This document shows, in pieces, positions 35,984 to 46,548 of a stretch of 64,000 bases of DNA; position 1 is the first letter of the stretch, and every line of letters begins with the position of its first letter. The stretch is from the NCBI GenBank assembly GCA_963698075.1, contig OY969116.1, positions 313,010 through 377,009 on the forward strand, in the 5' to 3' direction. The notes under the pieces are model-generated. The model did not search any database and had not been told where the DNA came from. It saw only the letters and a program-made list of their open reading frames with translations. Made by a program: the position numbers and the translations under genes. The stretch is from an uncultured Candidatus Berkelbacteria bacterium. GTDB taxonomy: Bacteria; Patescibacteriota; UBA1384; UBA12157; JAENIV01.

Positions 35984-36043
35984 AACTGCCTTTATAGTAT
36001 TTAGGGACTAAAATTTTGTCAAATAATCAGGTATAATAGATTT

Positions 36044-36463
36044 ATGAGACCCATTGCTTTTAATCGTCGCGCCTTGCACGACTATCATATTTTGGAAAAA
36101 TTTGAAGCAGGAATCGTTCTCACTGGTGAGGAAATTAAAGCCATCCGCGCCCATCGTGCCAATTTAGCCGGCGCCTTTTGTCGAATCCAACAAAATGAAG
36201 CCTGGATATTAAATCTGCATATTGCCAATACCAAAGAACCAGAACGAACACGAAAACTTTTATTACATAAAAACGAAATCCAATCTCTAATCGGCAAAAC
36301 CCAACAAAAAGGCTTATCGCTAATAGCGCTCTCGCTCTATATCAAAAAAAATCATGCCAAATTAGAACTCGCTCTTGCTCGCGGCAAAAAACTCCACGAC
36401 CGCCGCGAAGAACTCAAAAAACGTGATATCTCGCGCCAGACGGAAAGAGAATTAAAAGAATAG
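36044..36463 (+). CDS. smpB: SsrA-binding protein
   Basis: NRRALHDYHILEKFEAGIVLTGEEIK...HKNEI typical SmpB. Confidence 0.85.
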   Translation: MRPIAFNRRALHDYHILEKFEAGIVLTGEEIKAIRAHRANLAGAFCRIQQNEAWILNLHIANTKEPERTRKLLLHKNEIQSLIGKTQQKGLSLIALSLYIKKNHAKLELALARGKKLHDRREELKKRDISRQTERELKE

Positions 36464-36537
36464 CGTTGTTATCTGACTATTTTTCGTTTAAGAAAACACT
36501 CCGATATTCTGCAGAATATCGGAATATCTGTTATGAA

Positions 36538-37053
36538 CTATAACTTGTAAATGAATACTTTTCTGCTATTTATATGGTATTCAGTGCCATTTTGCAGAGC
36601 TTTAATCGGGAATCCTACCGAAATCAGACGGCTTCCGGCTTTGAGCTCGCTTTTGAATTTCGGGGCCAATTTCGAAAGCATTTCTGGCATTAAATAGCAG
36701 TAAACCACATCAGCCTTGGAAAAATCTAACTTGAAGATATTTTGATAGCGAATCTCAATGTTTTGGAATTTGGCCGTACGGATTTTAGTTAATATATAAT
36801 AGTAGGGGGAAATTTCTATTCCCCGTCCTTTTGCTCCCATTTTCGCCGCCTCAATTAACACATCGCCATTACCGCAACCGAGATCATAGAAAATTTCACC
36901 TTTTGCGAGGCCGGCTAATTTAAGCGCCTGGCGAATAACAATTTTATTTGCCATCACATAGGGACTGCCAAAAATCACTGAAATAAGATTAGACGCTTGC
37001 CAAAACAATAAACCGAACGATACTATCGCTAAAATTATTAAGAGAACTATCAT
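36538..37053 (-). CDS. Class I SAM-dependent methyltransferase with N-terminal TM
   Basis: DLGCGNGDVL motif I. Confidence 0.55.
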   Translation of the reverse strand: MIVLLIILAIVSFGLLFWQASNLISVIFGSPYVMANKIVIRQALKLAGLAKGEIFYDLGCGNGDVLIEAAKMGAKGRGIEISPYYYILTKIRTAKFQNIEIRYQNIFKLDFSKADVVYCYLMPEMLSKLAPKFKSELKAGSRLISVGFPIKALQNGTEYHINSRKVFIYKL

Positions 37054-37093
37054 ATCTCTATTGTAGTTTAGAAATTAGAAATTAGAAATTTCT

Positions 37094-37699
37094 TTAGTAG
37101 ATGTATCCCTTAATCGCGCCGTATGAGTATGAGATGGAAATCGTTCTTGAGGTAATTTTGGCAAAACCGCTATAATTCATTTCCGAAATCGTAATTGTCC
37201 CATCGTTATTAACCGCTTCGACAATCCCAACATGTCCAAAACGGCTTTCCGAGGTGACAATAATGGCGCCAACTTGGGGAACATTGCCGGTCGCAAAACC
37301 GGCGGCTCTTGCCCCAGAAAGCCATGTGCCGGCATTGCCAAACCACGGAATGTTGCGGCGCGAGGCAACATAATAAGTACAATAGCCGTAGGCGAAATGA
37401 TTGCGACCATCATTGGCTAATTTTACCGTGGGTTTAACCGTTTTGGCTGAGACCGAAGATTTTGGTAAGAGTTTGGCTGGAGTCACTTTTTCAGTAATTT
37501 GAGTCTCGGCGACCAATGGTTTTGAGAGAAAGCCATCGGGTGATAAAACTACCGGCTCTTCGCCAGCATCGGTCTTATTTAGTGACCCTGGAGTGACATT
37601 TTTAATCGCCTCTTTGGCCAAACCAAGATTGGCATCCAAAGGGCTGGCTGCGTGGGCGCGAGGAATTTCAAATGAACCAACTAGAATTCCCAGAATCAT
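37094..37699 (-). CDS. Secreted CHAP-domain peptidoglycan hydrolase-like protein
   Basis: GYCTYYVA (Cys) ... FGHVGIV (His) CHAP arrangement. An open frame continues upstream with a signal-peptide-like YLRLLGVGALMILGILVGSFEIPRAHA but no ATG/GTG/TTG (possible ATT start). Confidence 0.55.
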   Translation of the reverse strand: MILGILVGSFEIPRAHAASPLDANLGLAKEAIKNVTPGSLNKTDAGEEPVVLSPDGFLSKPLVAETQITEKVTPAKLLPKSSVSAKTVKPTVKLANDGRNHFAYGYCTYYVASRRNIPWFGNAGTWLSGARAAGFATGNVPQVGAIIVTSESRFGHVGIVEAVNNDGTITISEMNYSGFAKITSRTISISYSYGAIKGYIY

Positions 37700-38023
37700 T
37701 AAAGCCCCTACCCCAAGTAATCTGAGGTAAATTTGAGAACGATTTAATTGTGATATTGGTAAATTGTAATTTTCTTTTTGTTTGAGGCTAATTTTGGCTG
37801 ACTGCTTTTCCCCTTTAACCGCGCTGGCGGATATACAAATAATATACCTCCCAAAATCGAAGAAATAACTGGTTTCCCGTCCTTGTGAAGGTGCTCTGAA
37901 ACAACTATTCTCTCCGATATGTGCCTTTACGACAACACGTTTTCCATTCTATCAAAGGAGTCAATTTTGTCAAGGGTCAAGATCCCTCCTGTTAAAAAAG
38001 GCAACCAGTAGACTGTGGATAAC

Positions 38024-38052
38024 TTGACTAGCTATCAAAAAAGTGCTATAAT
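38024..38052 (+). promoter_or_regulatory. Consensus sigma70-like promoter TTGACT-17 bp-TATAAT for ssrA
   Basis: TTGACT 38024-38029, 17-bp spacer, TATAAT 38047-38052, 10 nt upstream of tmRNA 5' end. Confidence 0.5.
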
Positions 38053-38062
38053 TTTAAGCGAT

Positions 38063-38365
38063 GGGGCTATCAAGCTTCGACGGGAAACAATTTGACAATT
38101 TCAAGTCGAGAAGGCTACGAACCTCGCAAAATCCGTGGCAAACACTAAACGCTAACAAGCAATTAGTACCTGCCTTAGCCTAATAGGCTAATGCACGTCG
38201 TTCCATTTGTTGGTTGACCGAATGGAAACGGCGCCAACCGTCAACCTCTGGGGATGGAAGATCGTCCTGGTACTATCCTTGAAACAAACGAGGGCAAATG
38301 CTAAGCTTGTCAACGATTATCAAAGAGTTTTTCGGACGGGAGTGCGATTCTCCCTAGCTCCACCA
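38063..38365 (+). ncRNA. ssrA: tmRNA (ssrA), short form with encoded CCA
   Basis: 5' GGGGCUAUCAAGCUUCGACGGG and 3' GGACGGGAGUGCGAUUCUCCCUAGCUCCACCA match tmRNA tRNA-like-domain consensus. Internal frame gct aac aag caa tta gta cct gcc tta gcc TAA TAG (tag ANKQLVPALA). Confidence 0.8.
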
Positions 38366-38374
38366 TCAAAAAAT

Positions 38375-38398
38375 CACCCTTAAAACGGGTGGTTTTTT
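38375..38398 (+). terminator. Rho-independent terminator after ssrA
   Basis: caccc-ttaaaac-gggtg then gttttttg. Confidence 0.5.
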
Positions 38399-38432
38399 GT
38401 TAAGAAAGAAGGCCCGCCAACATCAGCGAGCC

Positions 38433-38720
38433 CTACTCGATTAGGTCAGCCCTTTTGAGAGCTTCAATCACCTCATCTTTGAGTGACTCGCCCCGGGGAA
38501 GCCCGAAGCTCTTGACTCTGATTGGGCCGTTAGCCCCTTCCTCGTGGAGGATGACTACCTCAAAACCATCGCACAAGACAATGATACTGCCAGGAGTTGG
38601 GGAATGATATTTGCGGCCCCAACAACGACCGACGAAACCGGTGAGATTGCACTTATTCCAGATGCCGTCTAAGGCCTTTCTTGCCTCAACGAGTCGTTCG
38701 CCATCGCGTTGTCTGGCCAC
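38433..38720 (-). CDS. Hypothetical small protein, moderately GC-rich
   Basis: 95-aa ORF directly downstream of ssrA; no recognised motif. Confidence 0.2.
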   Translation of the reverse strand: MARQRDGERLVEARKALDGIWNKCNLTGFVGRCWGRKYHSPTPGSIIVLCDGFEVVILHEEGANGPIRVKSFGLPRGESLKDEVIEALKRADLIE

Positions 38721-38826
38721 CTTTGACCTCCAAGAGAAGGTTTGCTATATCATAGTAATATAAAGCTTGAGTGTCAACCCTTGACAAAATGTAAAGTTGA
38801 CTTTACAATGTAGGTGGAGAGGAAAT

Positions 38827-39492
38827 ATGAAAATTTACATTCAACGTATCTCCCGTAGGTTAAGAAGTCTAAGGGAAGAGAAAGATCTCACTCAAGAAGA
38901 GCTTGCCGATCGACTGGGAATATCGAGACAATCGATAATCTCGGTTGAAAAAGGCAAATGTTTACCTTCTCTTCCCTTAGCCCTACGTATTTCGGAAATT
39001 TTTGAAAAATCTTTAGAAGACTTGTTTTTTGGTAATCAAAAAGAGAAAGGAGGTGATAATATGCCACGTTTCCTTATGCCCTGGTCGCCTTTCCGCAGAT
39101 TGGATAATTTTTTCGAGGATGAGGATTCATCGGCTTCCCCGCGATGGCGAGGATTCCAGTTCCCGATGGTTAACGTCAAACAATCTGACAAAGATATCGT
39201 TGTAACGGCTGACATTCCGGGGATCAAAGAAGAGGATGTCAATATTGAGGTTGGCGATACTTTTGTTGATATCTCTGGTGAGCGAAAAGAGGAAACCAAG
39301 AAAGAAGACGAAGGTTATTTCCACCAGGAAGTACGCTACGGTTCCTTTGCCCGACGCATTCCACTCCCGACTGAAGTCAAAGCAGATAAAGCCGACGCCA
39401 CAATCAAAGATGGACAACTGCGAATCACAATTCCCAAGCTCGAACCCGAAAAACCCAAAGTGACCAAAATCAAGGTCAAAAAAGCAAGCTAA
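38827..39492 (+). CDS. XRE-family HTH domain fused in-frame to an Hsp20/alpha-crystallin domain; internal RBS+ATG at 39061
   Basis: LTQEELADRLGISRQSIISVEKG (HTH_XRE) then MPRFLMPWSPFRRLD...VNVKQSDKDIVVTADIPGIKEEDVNIEV...GQLRITIPK (sHSP). AAGGAGGTGA 4 nt before the internal ATG. Upstream TTGACA-17-TACAAT. Confidence 0.6.
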   Translation: MKIYIQRISRRLRSLREEKDLTQEELADRLGISRQSIISVEKGKCLPSLPLALRISEIFEKSLEDLFFGNQKEKGGDNMPRFLMPWSPFRRLDNFFEDEDSSASPRWRGFQFPMVNVKQSDKDIVVTADIPGIKEEDVNIEVGDTFVDISGERKEETKKEDEGYFHQEVRYGSFARRIPLPTEVKADKADATIKDGQLRITIPKLEPEKPKVTKIKVKKAS

Positions 39493-39559
39493 AAATTTTG
39501 TTTGAAAGTCATTTTACCCTTGTTTTAAGATTTAATCTTTGATAATATACAAGATAGAT

Positions 39560-40204
39560 ATGACACCCCAAAAAGAAAGTAAAAAACCCTACATTATCGG
39601 CATTACCGGTGGTACAGCATCAGGAAAAACTTTCGTCATTGAGGCCTTAAAAGATGCTTTCAACGGCAAGATTTTAGTCATTTCCCAAGATCAATATTAC
39701 AAAGGCGAAAGAGTCAAAAGATTTGATCGTTGGGAAAGGGCTAATTTAGACCAACCAAGCGCTTTTGATAATGAGTTGTTAGAAAAGCATCTCCATGATT
39801 TGATTGCCGGAAAAACAGTCCTCGCACCGGTTTATAATTATCAACTTCATCAACAAACCAAAGCCAAAGTGCCGCTTGAGCCCAAACCAGTGATAATCCT
39901 CGAGGGAATCATGATTTTCAATGACGAAAGATTAAGAAATCTCATGGATTGGAAGGTTTATCTTGAAGCCGCCCCGGACATTCGTCTGGCCCGCCGTTTA
40001 CTGCGCGATATTGAAGAGCGGGGCGTTACCATTCAAAACATCCGTTCAACCATTGAATGGTACGTCCAAAACGTCAAACCGATGCATGATAAATATATCC
40101 ATCCGATGAAACAATATGCTGACGCCCGCCTTAACACTGACAAAGGCTCGCTCGAGGCCGCCAACACGGTCAAAGAAAAGGTTAAGGAAATTTTGCGCGC
40201 TTAG
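39560..40204 (+). CDS. udk: Uridine kinase
   Basis: IIGITGGTASGKT P-loop, Udk-like length. Stop TAG 40202-40204 lies inside the tRNA-Val 5' acceptor stem. Confidence 0.8.
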   Translation: MTPQKESKKPYIIGITGGTASGKTFVIEALKDAFNGKILVISQDQYYKGERVKRFDRWERANLDQPSAFDNELLEKHLHDLIAGKTVLAPVYNYQLHQQTKAKVPLEPKPVIILEGIMIFNDERLRNLMDWKVYLEAAPDIRLARRLLRDIEERGVTIQNIRSTIEWYVQNVKPMHDKYIHPMKQYADARLNTDKGSLEAANTVKEKVKEILRA

Positions 40205-40269
40205 CTCAGTGGCAGAGCGTCTCTTTGACGTAGAGAAGGTCACTGGTTCAAGTCCAGTAGCGCGCACCA
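40195..40269 (+). tRNA. tRNA-Val (anticodon GAC) with encoded CCA
   Basis: Hand-folded cloverleaf: acceptor gcgcgct/agcgcgc, anticodon arm tctct-ttgacgt-agaga, T-arm actgg-ttcaagt-ccagt. Confidence 0.9.
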
Positions 40270-40296
40270 TTGGTAAGGGGGCTTTTTTATGAAGAA

Positions 40297-40317
40297 GCGG
40301 TCGCCTATGGCGACCGC
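40297..40317. terminator. Perfect palindrome gcggtcgcc-tat-ggcgaccgc between convergent tRNA-Val and GC-rich gene
   Basis: 9-bp perfect inverted repeat, preceded by gggggctttttt. Confidence 0.4.
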
Positions 40318-40335
40318 CTTGAACTCGACTTTGAT

Positions 40336-41403
40336 CTATTCTTCGAACTCGATTTCGCGGACCGCCTTTCCCGAGGCCTTGACGATACCAAGACCATGCG
40401 TTTCCCCATAGCCACCTTTCTTGACGACGACGGTGTGGATGCTTGAACCAGCAATGAGCTTAGCGCAACTCAGACAGGGTATGGAGTTGACGTAAATGGT
40501 GGTGCCGGCGACCGGGATCCCGACATTGGCCGCCGTCAGAAACGCCATTTCTTCAGCATGAATCGCTCGACAAACCTCAAGCATTTGTCCCGACGGGATG
40601 CCTCTTTCATCCCTTTCGCAGCCCACGTCGGCACAAAGTTCCGAACCGGGATATTGGCCATTGAAACCTGTCGCAATCACCCTCAGCTCCTCGGGGATGG
40701 CAATCACGCAGCCGTATCGCCGGGTCTGACCCACGAGATATCCCTGTTCGTCTCGAGGGAAACTACCATCAGCAGCACGCTGACAACCCCTAACGCAATT
40801 AGAAAGCCGAGAGGTGGCCACGACAATCCCCATGAAGTAGCGATCCCGGCGAGCAATCTCTCTTTGGTATTCTTCAGTACCGAGACCAACGCCTGTCAAA
40901 CCCGTCGAACCAAATCCACCTATCCCCCTCATTGTTGGTGGTAACTCCTCTGCTGTCGCCACCTCAAGCAGATCAGGAATTTCCACCTGTGAAAAGATAA
41001 GCTGAGCAACACGCATCTCAGGCTCGATGGTAAACGGCTGACGGCCACGGTTAACCAAGAGACACCCCGCCTCGCCGCGGAAGTCCGGATCAATCGTTCC
41101 AGGACTGTTTCCCAGTTCAATTCGGTGCTTGGTTGCCAAACCGCTTCGCGGTCGCACTTCAACCTGGTGACCCCAGGGAAGAGCCATCGCAAAGCCAACA
41201 CCAATCAAAATGGCATCGTCAGGAAGAATTGTTACTGGTAGTTCCTCTCTCACTTCTCGTGTGTTTGGATCAAGAACTCGAGAGGCAAAGACATCATAGC
41301 CGATAGCCCCGGGGCTTGCCCTCACTGGCAACCGAGCATCAGGACGAACCTTCCAAACTCGAATACTTCCCAGCACTTCCGGCATCTTCCTTCCTCCACT
41401 CAA
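40336..41403 (-). CDS. Bifunctional dUTPase - dCMP deaminase fusion, GC-rich
   Basis: N-terminal GAIGYDV ... RSGLA ... GTIDPDFRGE ... GFGSTG (dUTPase). C-terminal HAEEMAF ... PCLSCAKL (cytidine/dCMP deaminase zinc motifs). GC far above background. Confidence 0.7.
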   Translation of the reverse strand: MSGGRKMPEVLGSIRVWKVRPDARLPVRASPGAIGYDVFASRVLDPNTREVREELPVTILPDDAILIGVGFAMALPWGHQVEVRPRSGLATKHRIELGNSPGTIDPDFRGEAGCLLVNRGRQPFTIEPEMRVAQLIFSQVEIPDLLEVATAEELPPTMRGIGGFGSTGLTGVGLGTEEYQREIARRDRYFMGIVVATSRLSNCVRGCQRAADGSFPRDEQGYLVGQTRRYGCVIAIPEELRVIATGFNGQYPGSELCADVGCERDERGIPSGQMLEVCRAIHAEEMAFLTAANVGIPVAGTTIYVNSIPCLSCAKLIAGSSIHTVVVKKGGYGETHGLGIVKASGKAVREIEFEE

Positions 41404-41472
41404 AGGTGCTCTCCAACCGCCTTTAATATAGCAAAGACAAATTTTAAAGCAACAGAAAAATATTGAGTTCTT

Positions 41473-42222
41473 TTAATTAGAGCTTTTTTCAATTACAATC
41501 GTCATTTTCCCGGAGCTGCTACCAAGATGGGCAATTCGTTGGCGCCAATCATAGTCACGATGATATTTCTTGATTTTAATATTATTGCTGCAAATATTTT
41601 TTATCATCGACTCTAACTTTTTTGGCGTCAAAAAAAACACTATTGAATTAGGTGTGACTTCCAATGACTTTATTCTTAATCCAATTCTAGCGTTAATTTT
41701 AGATAAATAATAAATTAATTTCGATCCCAGGGACGATTCATCAACTAACTCTTCGATAAAAATTGCTCCGTCCGGTTTCAAAGGCCGCCAAAGCTCTTTA
41801 AGAGCTTTTTCTTGATTATTGAGTGTTTCTTGATAATTTTTACCGATAAGATGATGGAGAATATCACGAATAATTAAACAATCGAAAGATTTATCAGCCA
41901 ATTTCGAATCCAGGATCGATCCATGAACAAAATTAATTTTTTTTAAAATTTGGCGGTTTCGATAGCTGGCGATTAGTTCGATATTCGTTAACTCACTTTG
42001 AGGAAAAGAATGATGAATTTGGGCCAATAATTGACCCGCGGCCCCTCCAAACTCAGCTATCTTAATTTTTTTTCCGCCAGAGGCGGATCGGCCTTTGGCC
42101 GACTTTTTTCTCGCCCAAGCTAAAAAAAGCGGAATAATTGGCGAGGTTGCCGCCGATTGATCTTTCTTCGCATAGTAATCAAGCTGTTCTTCAAAGAGCT
42201 TTGCCACCGAGGGATCTTGCAT
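41473..42222 (-). CDS. Class I SAM-dependent methyltransferase
   Basis: IAEFGGAAGQL motif I-like; DILHH. Confidence 0.5.
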   Translation of the reverse strand: MQDPSVAKLFEEQLDYYAKKDQSAATSPIIPLFLAWARKKSAKGRSASGGKKIKIAEFGGAAGQLLAQIHHSFPQSELTNIELIASYRNRQILKKINFVHGSILDSKLADKSFDCLIIRDILHHLIGKNYQETLNNQEKALKELWRPLKPDGAIFIEELVDESSLGSKLIYYLSKINARIGLRIKSLEVTPNSIVFFLTPKKLESMIKNICSNNIKIKKYHRDYDWRQRIAHLGSSSGKMTIVIEKSSN

Positions 42223-42223
42223 T

Positions 42224-43243
42224 CTAACTTCTCAATTTCCTAATTTCCGGCCACTCTTGAATTAAAACCGATATTGCCGCCGCAATTGGCACGGCAATCA
42301 AAACGCCCAAGATGCCCATAAGTTTAGCGCCCACCAGTAAAGCTAAAATAATGATCACTGGCGAAAGTCCCACCGCCTTACCCATTACTTTCGGGGCTAA
42401 AAACTGAGCTTCCAATTGTTGAATGACCAAATAAGCAATAAAAATCAATAAAGCTTTTAGGGGCGAAACCGTTAAGGCAACCAAAAAAGCCGGTATCAAC
42501 CCTAACCAAGGTCCAATATAAGGGATGACCTCAGTAATCGCTCCCCAAACAGCTAGAACTAAAGCATAAGGAATTCCCAAAGCGAGTAAGGCAACTGCAT
42601 CTAAAACTCCGATGATGACCATCAGTATGGCTTGACCTCTGAGCCATCCTCCCATTTTGCCGCCGATTTTTCTTAAAATTTCAAAAATTTTTTCTTTTTG
42701 GGTAAAAGGAAGAGTCTGCTCTAAAAATTTCTTTAAAGATTCTTGTTCCAAAAGCATATAAAAAGCCAAGACTAAAATTGTCAAAAAAGCCACGACCCCG
42801 GTAATAAAACCGACGGTCGTCGAATAAATTCCTGAGCCCAAACGACCCAATTGCGAGGAAATATTAAATAATCCTTCTTGGTAATTGCTGATCGAATTTT
42901 GAATCGTCTGATAAAAGGGTCCCAATTTAGATAAAATCGTCGGTAAATTGATGGCCAATAATTGAAGCTGGTGGACAATCGGCGGGATGATTAAATAACC
43001 TATGCCCCCCAAAACGCTCAAGAAAACCAAAGAAAATATAATCACTGCCAAGACCCGAGGCATTAATTTGGCCAGCCAATCAACAATTGGACCAAAAGCG
43101 GCGACAATGACCAAGACAATAAAGAAGAGGACGACAATATCACGGATGGCATATATAAACCAAACGGCAAAAACCGCCAAAATTAGCTTGATAATTGTTG
43201 ACGTCGAAATTTCAAATTTTATCCGGTCAGCATGCTTTTCCAT
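42224..43243 (-). CDS. AI-2E family transporter (PerM/YdiK-like)
   Basis: About 8 TM helices with the characteristic conserved loop ...LRGQAILMVIIGVLDAV... of the UPF0118/AI-2E family. Confidence 0.7.
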   Translation of the reverse strand: MEKHADRIKFEISTSTIIKLILAVFAVWFIYAIRDIVVLFFIVLVIVAAFGPIVDWLAKLMPRVLAVIIFSLVFLSVLGGIGYLIIPPIVHQLQLLAINLPTILSKLGPFYQTIQNSISNYQEGLFNISSQLGRLGSGIYSTTVGFITGVVAFLTILVLAFYMLLEQESLKKFLEQTLPFTQKEKIFEILRKIGGKMGGWLRGQAILMVIIGVLDAVALLALGIPYALVLAVWGAITEVIPYIGPWLGLIPAFLVALTVSPLKALLIFIAYLVIQQLEAQFLAPKVMGKAVGLSPVIIILALLVGAKLMGILGVLIAVPIAAAISVLIQEWPEIRKLRS

Positions 43244-43304
43244 CTTTAGTTCTACTTTATTCTAACAGGTAAAAGGTGAAAAAACAAGATTTTTAAGCTC
43301 GAGG

Positions 43305-43333
43305 TTGACTTTTGGGTCATTTTATGGTATAAT
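43305..43333 (+). promoter_or_regulatory. Consensus TTGACT-17 bp-TATAAT promoter upstream of the GC-rich beta-propeller gene
   Basis: TTGACT 43305-43310, TATAAT 43328-43333, then an 80-nt GC-rich hairpin-containing leader and ggaaagg SD. Confidence 0.45.
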
Positions 43334-43415
43334 CTCTAGGTTGTACCTGAAAAACCGGGTGTATCCCGGATAAAGCCTTGCGCCCCGAGGGGACAAGGCG
43401 GAAAGGCATTGAGCG

Positions 43416-44411
43416 ATGAAGCACAGCTCGGTCGTACTGATGGTTCTGGCGTTGGTCTTGTTGTGTATGATGGCCTGCAGCGCGGTGATGGCGTACGTTC
43501 CAGACTACCCCCCTATCTCTGAATCGCTGGCAGGAAGAACCCTCGCCCTCGCGGCGGTGCCCGCGGGCTCGATCGCACCCGTGCCGCAGGTCTTCGTCTG
43601 GCAGTATGGACGCCAGCCGGTCCAGATCACCAACTCCCGATGGGCCGTTACCCATCCGCGCTGGTCACCCAACGGCCACCTCCTTGCCGTCAACGACGGC
43701 AACCAGGTGGCGACGATCAACCTCGCCAACGGCAGAGAGACCATCGTCGTACCCGGTCCCCGCAAGTTCCTGGGAGACTGGTCATCGGATGGCCGTTTCC
43801 TCTGCTACACGGCGTTGACGTGGGTCCCGGAGTGGGACGACTTCTTCTTCCCGCGCGTCTGGTACGTGGACGTTCACACCAAGAAGAACTTCCAGATCCC
43901 GGACCATGGTGTGGACCAGCGCAATCCCACCTGGGGGGCCGACGGCACCATCGCCTACGAAGAGTGGGAGGGGGTCCCGCCGGTGATCAAGGGCTACAAC
44001 CCTTACACCGGCGAAGAGAAGCCCCTGGTGCCGATCGATGAGAAGTTTCATGGAGCGGAGAATCCGGTCTGGACCCCCGAGGGCGATCTTTACTACAACA
44101 ACTGGCCGCCCTACACCGACACCAACAAGATCTTCTTGGTTACAAACGAGGAGATCCCGGGCCGCGGCGACCCCGTCACCCACAACCTATGGGAATGGGG
44201 TGAGGACACGCCGGAACTGGCGACTGCCGAGGGTGACCTGTTCTACTACTCCCTGGGTCAGAACCAGTACACCACCTACCACTTCTTCCGCGACCGTTTC
44301 GGCACGCTGTGGGGCCTTGATCACATCATCGGCCTCGACTACTGGTGCGGATCAATCACCATCACCCAGAGCCAACCGATCCACCGCCGTTACTGGCGAT
44401 GGCGCCGATAA
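43416..44411 (+). CDS. Secreted (possible lipoprotein) TolB-like beta-propeller protein, GC-rich
   Basis: Signal peptide with LLCMMAC. Repeated PD40/WD40-like blades (PRWSPNGHLLA, DWSSDGRFLCY, PTWGADGTIAYEE, PVWTPEGDLYY). GC about 60%. Confidence 0.5.
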   Translation: MKHSSVVLMVLALVLLCMMACSAVMAYVPDYPPISESLAGRTLALAAVPAGSIAPVPQVFVWQYGRQPVQITNSRWAVTHPRWSPNGHLLAVNDGNQVATINLANGRETIVVPGPRKFLGDWSSDGRFLCYTALTWVPEWDDFFFPRVWYVDVHTKKNFQIPDHGVDQRNPTWGADGTIAYEEWEGVPPVIKGYNPYTGEEKPLVPIDEKFHGAENPVWTPEGDLYYNNWPPYTDTNKIFLVTNEEIPGRGDPVTHNLWEWGEDTPELATAEGDLFYYSLGQNQYTTYHFFRDRFGTLWGLDHIIGLDYWCGSITITQSQPIHRRYWRWRR

Positions 44412-44435
44412 CTATCACCGCACACTCAGACATGA

Positions 44436-44466
44436 ACGGCGGTCCACCCGGACCGCCGTTTCTTTA
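44436..44466 (+). terminator. Rho-independent terminator
   Basis: acggcggtcc-accc-ggaccgccgt then ttctttat. Confidence 0.5.
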
Positions 44467-44486
44467 TATCTAAAAAGAGATCCTTT

Positions 44487-45569
44487 TTATTCATCCGCCA
44501 AACGAAATCTTAAGACCGAAATCACTAACGTCACCACAATCCATACGAGTACTATTATTATATTAACTGGATTAGTAAAAGGTGATGAATTTTCTAAGCC
44601 GACCTGACGAATCATACGAAGTAAGGGTGCTAAGGGTAAATATTGGACAATACTGAAAAGCCATTTTGGTAATTGATCAATCGGAAAAAATACGCCGGCC
44701 AAAAACATCATCGGAATACTAATCGCTACTGACATTCCTTGAGCGGCGTCAACGGTTTTGGAAGCCGACGCCACGGCAAAACCAATTGATTGAAAAAGCA
44801 AACCGCCAAGCAAGGAGATTAGAACAATTAGCCAGAGGCTGCCCACAATGTGAGCATTAAAACCCCAAATACCGATGGCCAGAATCAGTGATATTTGGAT
44901 AATATTAACCACTAATCTCGACATCACCTCAGCGAAGACAAACTTCCATGGCTTGAGAGGCGTTGTTGTAATTCTTTTTAGGATTTTATCTTGACGATAG
45001 CGAGCCATGGTAATGGCGATTCCCTGAATCGAACCATTCATCAGCGCCAAACCAATAATCCCAATAAGAACAAAATCAAAATAAGTCAAATTTTTATCAG
45101 TCAGGGTTTCATTTTTTACCGAATAAATTGGTCGGGCATTTTGGATTTGAAAATTAACATTATTTAAAAATTTATCCAAAAATCCGGCAACCGCTAAATT
45201 AGCTTGAGCGTTAGAGGGATCGTTGATAAAAATTATTTGGGTGGGTGCACCAGGTTTAGGATTACCAAAATCTCGAGGAATTTCCACCACTGCTGTCACT
45301 TTATTTTTCTTTAAGAGATCTTTGCCAGCATTAACATCTTGTTCTTTTTGAATCTTAAAAATACCCGAATCAGTCATTGTTTTTTCGATTGTCGCCGCCA
45401 GCTCACTGTTGGAATTATTAATTAAGGCGACGGTCCCCACATTAGTATTATTGCCGCCGAAAAAAAGCCCAAAAATAATCGTGAACATCAAGGGGAAAAA
45501 CAAGCTCCAAAAAAGCGCCTGTCGGCCGCGAACTAACATTTTTAGGTTGGCGATAAATAGTCGAAACAT
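44487..45569 (-). CDS. ABC-2 type transporter permease
   Basis: N-terminal TM, large extracytoplasmic loop, then 5 TM helices. Confidence 0.6.
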   Translation of the reverse strand: MFRLFIANLKMLVRGRQALFWSLFFPLMFTIIFGLFFGGNNTNVGTVALINNSNSELAATIEKTMTDSGIFKIQKEQDVNAGKDLLKKNKVTAVVEIPRDFGNPKPGAPTQIIFINDPSNAQANLAVAGFLDKFLNNVNFQIQNARPIYSVKNETLTDKNLTYFDFVLIGIIGLALMNGSIQGIAITMARYRQDKILKRITTTPLKPWKFVFAEVMSRLVVNIIQISLILAIGIWGFNAHIVGSLWLIVLISLLGGLLFQSIGFAVASASKTVDAAQGMSVAISIPMMFLAGVFFPIDQLPKWLFSIVQYLPLAPLLRMIRQVGLENSSPFTNPVNIIIVLVWIVVTLVISVLRFRLADE

Positions 45570-45582
45570 TTTAATTTAAAAA

Positions 45583-46548
45583 TTATTTATTACTATTTTC
45601 TTCGTCAGTAATTGTTTTACCGGTCAATTCGATAAATACATCTTCGAGGGTCGCCGAGCCAACATTGATGCTTTCTGGTCTTTCTTTTTGGACTAAGTCT
45701 AAAGCATCATTCAAAGCAGTCTGGGATTTTAATTTAATTTCGTAATGGGCCGTTTTTCCGGGAAAAGTCTTAATGTCACAGTCTTCAACATGACAATTAG
45801 CCCTTAATTTATCAATTAATTGGGGATTCTCATAAGACAAAATAAACTCAATTTTATAAGGACTATCTGTTTTCTCAATCAACCGGTGGGGTTTATCCAA
45901 AACAATAATTTTGCCTTTATCCATAATCGCCACTCGGTCGCAGAGAATTTCCGCTTCCTCCATGTAGTGAGTTGTCAAAACGATCGTTTTCCCCTGCTTT
46001 TTTATCTCGGAAATTATTTCCCACAAATTACGACGACCGATCGGATCAAGACCGGTCGTGGGTTCGTCCAAAAAGACAATTTGAGGATCATTAATCAATG
46101 AAGCGATAATCGAAAAACGCTGTTTTTGCCCGCCAGAAAGATCTCTAATATATTGATTAGCTTTGCTCTCCAGGCCAACCATTTTCAAAAGCCGTGCTGG
46201 ATAAAGATGCATTTTATAAAAACCGCCGAATAATTCAAGAATTTCTTTGAGCTTCAGATCGTCAAAATAGGCGCTTGATTGCAGTTGGACGCCAATTTTT
46301 TCCTTGATAGTTCCGAGTTCTTTTTTGACATCTTTGCCCAAAACTAAAATCTCGCCGTGGGTTGGCTTTCTCAAACCTTCAATCATTTCTAAAGTCGTGG
46401 TTTTACCGGCACCATTTTCGCCCAAAAGACCAAAAATCTCGCCCTTTTGAACTTCAAAAGAGATATCGTTAACCGCTAAGAGTCCATTATCCCCCGCATG
46501 ATATCTTTTGGATAAATTCTTAACTTCAATGACTTTTCCGTTCATCAT
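45583..46548 (-). CDS. ABC transporter ATP-binding protein
   Basis: GLLGENGAGKTTT, LSGGQKQR, VFLDEPTTGLD. Confidence 0.8.
   Translation of the reverse strand: MMNGKVIEVKNLSKRYHAGDNGLLAVNDISFEVQKGEIFGLLGENGAGKTTTLEMIEGLRKPTHGEILVLGKDVKKELGTIKEKIGVQLQSSAYFDDLKLKEILELFGGFYKMHLYPARLLKMVGLESKANQYIRDLSGGQKQRFSIIASLINDPQIVFLDEPTTGLDPIGRRNLWEIISEIKKQGKTIVLTTHYMEEAEILCDRVAIMDKGKIIVLDKPHRLIEKTDSPYKIEFILSYENPQLIDKLRANCHVEDCDIKTFPGKTAHYEIKLKSQTALNDALDLVQKERPESINVGSATLEDVFIELTGKTITDEENSNK

Follow-up and report, generated by a model that had tools for sequence, protein, structure and literature searches.

Background

Heat-shock control in bacteria is mostly explained by a regulator that is set by a separate chaperone (sigma-32/DnaK, HrcA/GroEL, HspR/DnaK) or by an sHSP acting on its own mRNA (IbpA). 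In the HspR-DnaK and HrcA-GroEL pairs the activity of the repressor depends on the availability of the chaperone, which is drawn off by unfolded proteins. Here we analyze a gene that joins both kinds of protein: a fusion of an XRE-type helix-turn-helix (HTH) domain to a complete sHSP (small heat-shock protein). It lies in a stretch of 64,000 nucleotides (the window) from an uncultured Candidatus Berkelbacteria bacterium (contig OY969116.1 of assembly GCA_963698075.1, positions 313,010 to 377,009 of the forward strand), with a GC content of 42.4% and with closest database matches named Patescibacteria/Berkelbacteria. Judged by comparison with related loci, it is likely that this single frame yields two isoforms, the fusion and a free sHSP, and that the fusion represses its own promoter. 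Whereas chaperone and repressor are separate and non-covalently associated in HspR-DnaK and HrcA-GroEL, and the chaperones there are ATP-dependent, the predicted wiring of the fusion is simpler: chaperone and DNA-binding domain form one chain, and the circuit would fit in about 700 bp with a single operator. A review of the chaperone-repressor circuits (Roncarati and Scarlato 2017) is cited in PMC11754652.

Several described systems share part of this design. In Escherichia coli the sHSP IbpA represses its own translation (and that of rpoH), and aggregates titrate IbpA (bioRxiv 10.1101/2020.04.20.050740; PMC10474464; PMC10410725). The likeness is that an sHSP would sense the demand for itself, with free sHSP stopping synthesis and client engagement relieving the block. 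IbpA, however, acts on mRNA via the sHSP itself and has no DNA-binding domain, whereas control by the fusion is predicted to be transcriptional (through the fused XRE HTH and an operator), with a predicted HTH-less isoform in addition.

A parallel in circuit layout is RheA of Streptomyces albus, an autoregulated repressor dedicated to the sHSP gene hsp18 and itself a thermosensor, according to the account in PMC11754652, which cites Servant et al. 2000. As told there, one sHSP gene is the only target of a repressor that also governs its own synthesis, via an operator overlapping the promoter, as we propose here. In that same account RheA and HSP18 are separate, divergently transcribed genes, whereas in the fusion the repressor and the sHSP are one polypeptide from one transcription unit.

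The production of a full-length and a shortened protein from one frame is known from in-frame dual-start genes such as ClpB-93/79, IF2 alpha/beta, CheA-L/S and the Tn5 transposase/inhibitor, and in Tn5 the short form without the DNA-binding part modulates the long form. A genome-wide survey indicates that in-frame internal starts yield second, N-terminally shortened proteoforms (bioRxiv 10.1101/520783). As in these genes, the short product of the fusion would drop an N-terminal domain and retain the shared assembly domain. Unlike the ClpB, IF2, CheA and Tn5 cases, the fusion joins a transcription factor to an sHSP, and its short form would be the ancestral full-size protein and its long form the derived one. 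Finally, the HTH part is a small five-helix domain like that of CylR2 of Enterococcus faecalis and the PbsX family (proteins of about 65 amino acids (aa)), but those proteins consist of the HTH domain alone.

The ingredients are thus known: XRE repressor, sHSP, promoter-occluding autorepression, chaperone-titration feedback, in-frame dual starts and leaderless mRNAs. What appears to be undescribed is their combination: an sHSP-fused repressor, a conserved internal start from which the free chaperone is regained, and a hard-wired asymmetry between the two starts. This agrees with the initial annotation, whose author had not seen such a unit described: targeted full-text literature searches turned up no publication on a fusion of HTH and sHSP, none of the NCBIfam models covers it, and the public databases carry the proteins under automatic names only. 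If confirmed, it would to our knowledge also be the first candidate stress regulator with an operator motif for Patescibacteria (Candidate Phyla Radiation, CPR), where little regulatory biology is known; this is our own assessment, made without a search of the CPR literature.

Results and discussion

The fusion gene and its relatives

The gene had been described as an HTH part and an sHSP part with no stop between them, and it is indeed one open reading frame (ORF) of 221 aa that matches Pfam HTH_3 and HSP20. Its parts are as follows.

38827-39492, + strand: coding sequence of the fusion (long isoform) from an ATG, 221 aa, comprising XRE HTH, linker and complete sHSP
38860-39024, + strand: XRE/Cro-C1 HTH domain, aa 12-66 (Pfam HTH_3, PF01381, E 6.7e-14)
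39047-39056, + strand: internal Shine-Dalgarno (SD) sequence AAGGAGGTGA in the linker codons, followed by 4 nucleotides (nt) and an ATG
39061-39492, + strand: coding sequence of the predicted short isoform, 143 aa (Met79-Ser221), comprising the N-terminal region, alpha-crystallin domain and C-terminal tail of the sHSP
39175-39477, + strand: alpha-crystallin (Hsp20) domain, aa 117-217 (Pfam HSP20, PF00011, E 2.1e-23)
39469-39477, + strand: tail motif I215-K-V217 (I/V-X-I/V), within the conserved KIKVKK of alignment A1

The TTG at 38797, which the ORF tool had taken as the start, was rejected because it falls inside the promoter. Scores are 52.1 bits for HTH_3 (cut-off 23) and 82.8 bits for HSP20 (cut-off 20.8). 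The AlphaFold2 model contains a five-helix domain at aa 1-68 (pLDDT about 85-92) and a beta-sandwich with its strands within aa 115-204, and a disordered stretch at aa 71-110 connects the two folded domains. The N-terminal region of the sHSP (aa 79-112), which is predicted to be disordered, carries the conserved motif PWSPF; together with the I/V-X-I/V tail, this region is what drives assembly in sHSPs. Solved structures match either half: CylR2 and a PbsX-family regulator for aa 10-68 (PDB 1utx and 9k3w, E 4e-9 to 1e-11), and HspA (6ewn), Hsp16.9 (1gme) and Hsp16.5 for the sHSP (phmmer, 5e-18 to 1e-14). No solved chain spans both domains in the PDB search.

The fusion is widespread among relatives. 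A protein search for similar fusions, which the initial annotation had proposed as a check, returned more than 110 clusters (at the 90% identity level) with 39-92% identity to the query, nearly all with both Pfam domains. With 50%-identity representatives, an exhaustive search gave 44 clusters at E <= 1e-30, and about 70 full-length two-domain proteins were present in the top 150. Named homologues carry the label 'Hsp20 family protein' or 'helix-turn-helix domain-containing protein' and belong to Patescibacteria/Berkelbacteria (for example AKM82553.1, UniProt A0A0G4B563). For comparisons at the DNA level we used 4 loci from genomes and 80 from metagenomes; most counts below refer to the 79 non-identical loci. 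Together these roughly 80 related loci from Patescibacteria/Berkelbacteria, with 37-90% identity, amount to 284 kb of sequence. In nearly all of them a single alignment segment covers both domains.

It had been pointed out that a sequencing error hiding a stop codon between the two parts would undo the fusion. This was examined from the long start to the internal ATG: a stop in frame 0 is found in none of the 79 loci, whereas frames +1 and +2 are each interrupted in all 79. Because of this difference a sequencing error can be excluded, and the long reading frame is, on comparative grounds, under selection. The linker behind the HTH varies from 7 to 46 aa across loci while the frame stays open, which means that all insertions and deletions are multiples of three.

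Three short 'Hsp20-only' database hits of 142-143 aa (P0076, P0083 on an 810-nt contig, and P0086) could be taken for unfused genes, and P0076 and P0086 were checked. P0076 begins 15 nt from the edge of a contig with coverage 1. The P0086 loci either have an intact in-frame HTH upstream, the gene caller having taken the internal start, or are cut by a contig end. Both were therefore rejected as unfused genes. The same happened at locus L162 (408-839), where the caller chose the internal start although the in-frame HTH upstream is intact. With callers split between the two starts, public records for this family are inconsistent; databases list the protein simply as 'Hsp20'. In one further homologue (L112, 16-630) the HTH, linker and SD with ATG lead into a non-sHSP sequence of low complexity, perhaps because of a rearrangement, a frameshift or a chimeric assembly.

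The internal start

A perfect SD four nucleotides ahead of an ATG at the beginning of the sHSP part had been noted earlier. It is present at 39047-39063 (AAGGAGGTGA-N4-ATG), and the ATG is the in-frame codon of Met79, so that the predicted N-terminus of the short isoform reads MPRFLMPWSPFR (Met-Pro-Arg-Phe-Leu). We consider that translation very probably initiates here, given how closely both the codon and its SD are kept among relatives.

As for the codon, Met79 is invariant in alignments A1 and A2. It is among only 12 invariant columns in an alignment of 26 sequences reaching down to 46% identity, even though it lies in the least conserved part of the protein. Of the 84 fetched fusion loci 79 retain it; the other cases are due to slips in the alignment, to truncated contigs and, in L127 and L097, to real loss. 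Stand-alone sHSPs of many phyla align their own residues 1-5 with residues 79-84 of the query, and since they begin at the position of Met79, the short product would be a normal, complete sHSP.

The SD was assessed as the anti-SD pairing energy of the 18 nt upstream of each site. The internal ATG has a mean of -12.05 kcal/mol, and 95% of the 79 loci are at or below -8. Annotated long starts reach a mean of -2.4, against -2.9 for 348 other in-frame Met codons and -2.8 kcal/mol for all codons. In the window the internal SD has -16.2 kcal/mol, whereas the best candidate SD among 58 long ORFs has only -11.7. A GGAG occurs within 18 nt upstream of the internal ATG in 73 of the 79 loci. It is found in two codon registers (39 and 34 loci), and the distance from the end of the GGAG to the ATG ranges from 2 to 12 nt. 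No fewer than 65 different pentapeptides precede the internal Met. The SD being kept in two registers and in front of so many pentapeptides, the constraint acts on the RNA rather than on the peptide. Codon choice points in the same direction: the observed sites have a mean of -11.95 kcal/mol, compared to -7.18 for synonymous recodings of the six upstream codons.

A TGA-TAA in the -1 frame at 39054-39059 was considered as the former stop of an upstream gene. It was rejected, as the TGA is the 3' part of an extended SD, GGAGGTGA, which recurs in relatives with differing downstream bases.

The upstream start and its leader

The start of the long isoform is preceded by a short and weak SD.

38816-38822, + strand: weak SD of the long isoform, GGAGAGG, with 7 nt from GGAG to the ATG (-7.0 kcal/mol)

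The GGAG is conserved at the position of 38816 in the clade of the window. With a gap of 17 nt between the -10 element and the ATG, the leader in the window would be about 10 nt long and the mRNA not leaderless. Relatives differ in this respect. In 40 loci a gap of 5-10 nt (exactly 6 nt in 19-20 of them) separates the -10 element from the start codon, which is an ATG in 36 of the 40; such a short gap would place the expected transcription start on the ATG itself, giving a leaderless or nearly leaderless mRNA. Another 21 loci, among them the window and its clade, have a gap of 11-30 nt with only a 4-nt GGAG of about -6 kcal/mol, and 15 loci have longer leaders. That annotated starts show no mean SD signal is explained by the many leaderless or short, weak leaders. 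On the strength of these start sites, the output would be little of the long form and much of the short form.

Some loci deviate at the upstream start. In L089, L095 and L153 an ATA stands in place of the usual start codon, turning MKIHI into IKIHI, and GGAGGTGA precedes it. As a GTG located 5 nt past the -10 element is the sole canonical start there, translation may begin at the ATA or at a leaderless GTG. Locus L097 has the same IKIHI-type start and, in addition, a deletion of the linker and of the sHSP N-terminal region including the internal Met. In L127, which also has no internal Met, the long start stands behind a GGGAG in a 24-nt leader; with -7.9 kcal/mol this is about like other short-leader starts.

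Promoter and operator

The promoter reported earlier, TTGACA-17-TACAAT at 38781-38809, was recovered by a consensus scan with 11 of 12 matches, and it contains a palindrome.

38781-38786, + strand: -35 element of the fusion promoter, TTGACA, followed by a 17-nt spacer
38804-38809, + strand: -10 element of the fusion promoter, TACAAT
38790-38807, + strand: candidate operator TGTAAAG-TTGA-CTTTACA, a perfect palindrome that fills the spacer and extends into the -10 element

The left half-site lies in the spacer just past the -35 element, and the right half-site overlaps the -10 element, as CTTTACAAT contains TACAAT. Both promoter and palindrome are conserved. Among 72 distinct related promoter segments the consensus is TTGACAaAATGTAAAGtttaCTTTACAaT, and TGTAAAG-N4-CTTTACA (with at most 1 mismatch) occurs upstream of the gene in 75 of the 79 loci, or 77 when two with mis-set starts are counted. 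Flanking promoter positions that were not used for selecting the sites are also 89-100% conserved. The nearly invariant stretch GISRQSIISVE of the HTH in the family alignments matches this invariant operator. With up to 2 mismatches allowed, a search of the 64-kb window found no second operator; none occurs elsewhere in the 284 kb of locus sequence either, and the window contains no CIRCE element.

A consensus promoter with an optimal 17-bp spacer that is filled by a palindrome is the layout of repression by occlusion. CylR2 and similar small HTH proteins of the XRE type are dimeric repressors that bind inverted repeats. Taken together, the comparative evidence makes it quite probable that the fusion is a dedicated autorepressor of its own promoter. 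Two suggestions of the initial annotation thereby gain comparative support: autoregulation from 38781-38809, by the conserved palindromic candidate operator inside the promoter, and the production of both fusion and free sHSP from one message, by the open frame and the near-invariant Met79 with its conserved SD, which make it a well-founded prediction.

The promoter of a neighboring gene for a CHAP-domain protein (37964-37977, - strand) shares an identical 14 nt, ACCCTTGACAAAAT, around its -35 element with the fusion promoter (38777-38790, + strand). The CHAP promoter has no operator half-sites, and the shared ACCCTTGACAAAAT may be a common extended -35/UP context.

A proposed mechanism

These elements can be combined into a small feedback circuit. 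Transcription would start from the near-consensus sigma-70-type promoter, with the palindrome lying over spacer and -10 element. The long form (221 aa) would be translated inefficiently, from a weak GGAG in the window and from a leaderless mRNA in about half of the relatives, whereas the short form (143 aa, from Met79) would be translated as an ordinary sHSP from the strongest SD of the region. The long form would bind the palindrome as a dimer, held together by the alpha-crystallin domain and/or by the HTH as in CylR2, and in doing so would block RNA polymerase and repress its own synthesis. As both isoforms share the N-terminal region, the alpha-crystallin domain and the I-X-V tail, they are expected to co-assemble into mixed oligomers.

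On heating, the storage oligomers of sHSPs give way to dimers that bind clients, and aggregates take the sHSPs up (PMC8155344). In the circuit, unfolded clients or a temperature-shifted balance between oligomers and dimers would engage or rearrange the sHSP moiety, the HTH would leave the operator and the gene would be induced. Accumulating free sHSP would then take over the substrates, upon which repression would return. We propose titration, the simplest model, as the specific mechanism only tentatively, at slightly short of an even chance. Somewhat less probable is the complete picture of a one-polypeptide switch in which the sHSP moiety is the sensor of proteotoxic stress, client binding or heat de-oligomerization removes the HTH and the asymmetry of the two starts hard-wires the ratio of sensor to effector. 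The short form could also act as an anti-repressor by forming heterodimers with one HTH, like the Tn5 inhibitor protein.

Several points weigh against this scheme. That both forms are translated, that the promoter is repressed instead of activated and that stress is sensed in this way is what we infer from the sequences, and the isoform ratio is inferred solely from SD strength and leader type. A strong SD with an ATG within a gene is by itself no proof of initiation, and the internal SD has an unpaired probability of 0.49 against 0.42 for the rest of the mRNA, which is only a slight rise. Furthermore, L127 and L097 have no internal Met and some loci have long leaders, so the design is not universal. 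Finally, single-HTH heterodimers could give positive feedback instead of buffering, so that the sign of the feedback is not settled.

If the scheme is true, the fusion would be the first transcription factor with an ATP-independent chaperone as its covalent signal-input domain, and for some genome-reduced Patescibacteria it may represent the main heat-shock circuit, in minimal form. It would also be a deeply conserved addition to the short list of functional in-frame dual-start genes. It would provide a very small, portable and easily reconstituted model of how sHSP oligomer state or client load is turned into a transcription signal, as well as a compact stress-inducible promoter-repressor cassette for synthetic biology. 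We expect that the fusion would moderately surprise specialists of sHSPs and heat shock, its basis so far being comparative sequence from uncultured organisms.

Alternative explanations

Among the other explanations, direct sensing of temperature survives best, although we regard it as unlikely. The sensor would be either the protein itself, through a RheA-like change, or an mRNA thermometer at the internal start. RheA, the repressor of hsp18, is itself a thermosensor in the account of PMC11754652, and many bacterial sHSP genes have RNA thermometers (PMC8155344). Moreover, shuffled versions of the 5' part of the mRNA fold less stably than the real one (z = -2.9), in which there is a 14-bp stem.

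38869-38882, + strand: left arm of a perfect 14-bp inverted repeat in the HTH coding sequence, a possible mRNA stem
38967-38980, + strand: right arm, pairing with 38869-38882

The repeat pairs LREEK codons with PSLPLA codons and forms in the minimum-free-energy fold of the mRNA. In most of the clade of the window (62-90% identity) 12-14 pairs are kept, and in L124, L143 and L144 the stem is retained by a double change from G-C to A-T (E to K and P to S). It could be an element of mRNA stability or translation. As a thermometer, however, it is poorly placed: it lies in the HTH coding part and over neither start, and in most of the distant relatives its pairing drops to chance level. Within 36000-42000 no thermometer family of Rfam reaches its gathering score, and in ensembles predicted for 15 or 37 C the internal SD is no more paired than the mRNA around it. 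For these two reasons an RNA thermometer (ROSE, fourU and similar) was rejected. A protein thermosensor, on the other hand, is a variant of the sensing step in the autorepression scheme rather than a true alternative to it.

It is improbable that only the full-length fusion is made, with the internal SD and ATG being either the leftover of a gene junction or a device that slows the ribosome for folding of the HTH. The fusion presumably originated from an HTH gene followed by an hsp20 gene, in which case the site was once a normal start; besides, initiation at this site is a prediction from sequence, and the accessibility of the SD is only weakly raised. Yet a relic would decay, whereas Met and SD persist in about 95% of the 79 loci, down to 37% identity and despite a diverged linker. 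This survival over large divergence argues that the internal site is no relic of an ancient junction. The SD also shifts its register and spacing (2-12 nt) while always holding a working distance to the ATG, codons are chosen that favor it over synonymous alternatives, and no unfused pair of HTH and hsp20 genes was found near the stand-alone hsp20 genes of loci L005-L080.

Equally improbable is a role of the long isoform as activator of the promoter or as regulator of other genes, with the spacer palindrome serving to remodel the promoter under stress in the manner of MerR. The site does lie in the spacer, where MerR-type activators bind too, and sequence alone does not tell activation from repression. 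However, activation of the MerR type requires an over-long spacer of 19-20 bp and is for this reason unlikely here: the spacer has the optimal 17 bp, the -35 element is consensus and the -10 element near-consensus, so that the promoter should be strong unaided and in need of repression. The right half-site overlaps the -10 element itself, the 284 kb of locus sequence hold no second site for a wider regulon, and CylR2, the closest solved relative of the HTH, belongs to a group of small XRE-type proteins known as repressors. Autorepression remains the preferred reading of the operator.

Neighboring genes

The gene had been placed downstream of ssrA (transfer-messenger RNA, tmRNA), whose 3' flank was seen as a classical insertion point for islands, together with an anonymous ORF of 95 aa (ORF95) with elevated GC. 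ssrA is a neighbor of the fusion unit and lies outside it.

38024-38052, + strand: promoter of ssrA (consensus scan)
38063-38365, + strand: ssrA (tmRNA) with tag ANKQLVPALA (ARAGORN; Rfam RF00023, 114.5 bits)
38375-38391, + strand: terminator hairpin of ssrA, followed by a T-run (read from the sequence)
38434-38409, - strand: terminator of ORF95 (signal scan)
38433-38720, - strand: ORF95, 95 aa, GTG start, divergent from the fusion gene (ORF list)
38731-38727, - strand: SD of ORF95, GGAGG, 6 nt ahead of the GTG
38777-38749, - strand: promoter of ORF95 (consensus scan)

Insertion of cargo at the 3' end of ssrA did not hold up. No direct repeat of the tmRNA 3' end is present within 37900-46000, and a Pfam scan of four flanking ORFs (CHAP protein, ORF95, uridine kinase and dUTPase/deaminase) revealed no integrase or mobility gene. 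Locus comparison shows that in relatives, too, the fusion is followed by uridine kinase and then tRNA-Val(GAC), and L165 additionally retains the dUTPase-dCMP deaminase gene, the whole block ORF95 / fusion / uridine kinase / tRNA-Val / dUTPase-deaminase being syntenic. The position of ssrA, by contrast, is variable. In L001, L084, L091, L096, L095 and L089 it is adjacent to the fusion but on the opposite strand, so that the fusion sits 5' of ssrA and away from the 3' attachment end; in L165 it is about 2 kb away, past a two-component system. Since the gene order is kept whatever the orientation or distance of ssrA, the neighborhood of the fusion is one of vertical synteny and not an island.

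That the region is a mobile island inserted at ssrA, with the HTH protein as a phage- or antitoxin-type repressor and ORF95 as its partner, is thus highly improbable: the fusion does lie beside ssrA, ORF95 has raised GC, no known family and a divergent orientation from back-to-back promoters, and the HTH is weakly similar to RstR and antitoxin families in NCBIfam (every match below cut-off), but next to the missing repeat, the lack of mobility genes among the four flanking ORFs and the conserved gene order, most loci with fusion and operator have no ORF95, and such GC is common in the window (for example about 54% at 40250-41400).

ORF95 itself is a real gene: it has expression signals, and L165, L087 and L081 carry homologues (50-63% identity) that likewise diverge from the fusion gene. 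Only the nearest relatives of the window have it, and it stands outside the conserved unit. Its elevated GC was confirmed (53.5% against a window mean of 42.4%), though with 7.7% of all 288-nt windows reaching that value it is not extreme. It has no match in Pfam, NCBIfam or PHROGs, and its AlphaFold2 model (pLDDT 73) gives no Foldseek hit in PDB better than E 0.3. An XRE toxin-antitoxin pair of ORF95 and fusion was rejected, because ORF95 is divergent, matches no toxin family and is missing from most fusion loci. In tblastn its aa 1-40 weakly matched sites downstream of stand-alone hsp20 genes, but these sites encode N-termini of DnaK and the matches are spurious. Stand-alone hsp20 is directly followed by dnaK on the same strand in many Patescibacteria and in some other phyla (L010, L021, L024, L042, L043, L055, L056, L061, L063 and others).

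Two further regions of the window were noted in passing. The ORF at 40336-41403 (- strand, 355 aa) joins a dUTPase/dCTP-deaminase-like domain to a dCMP/cytidine deaminase domain and has a GC content of about 54% against 42% for the window; L165 holds a syntenic fusion of the same two domains. The GC content reaches 63-65% at 43400-44000, far over the window mean, inside the ORF at 43416-44411 (+ strand).

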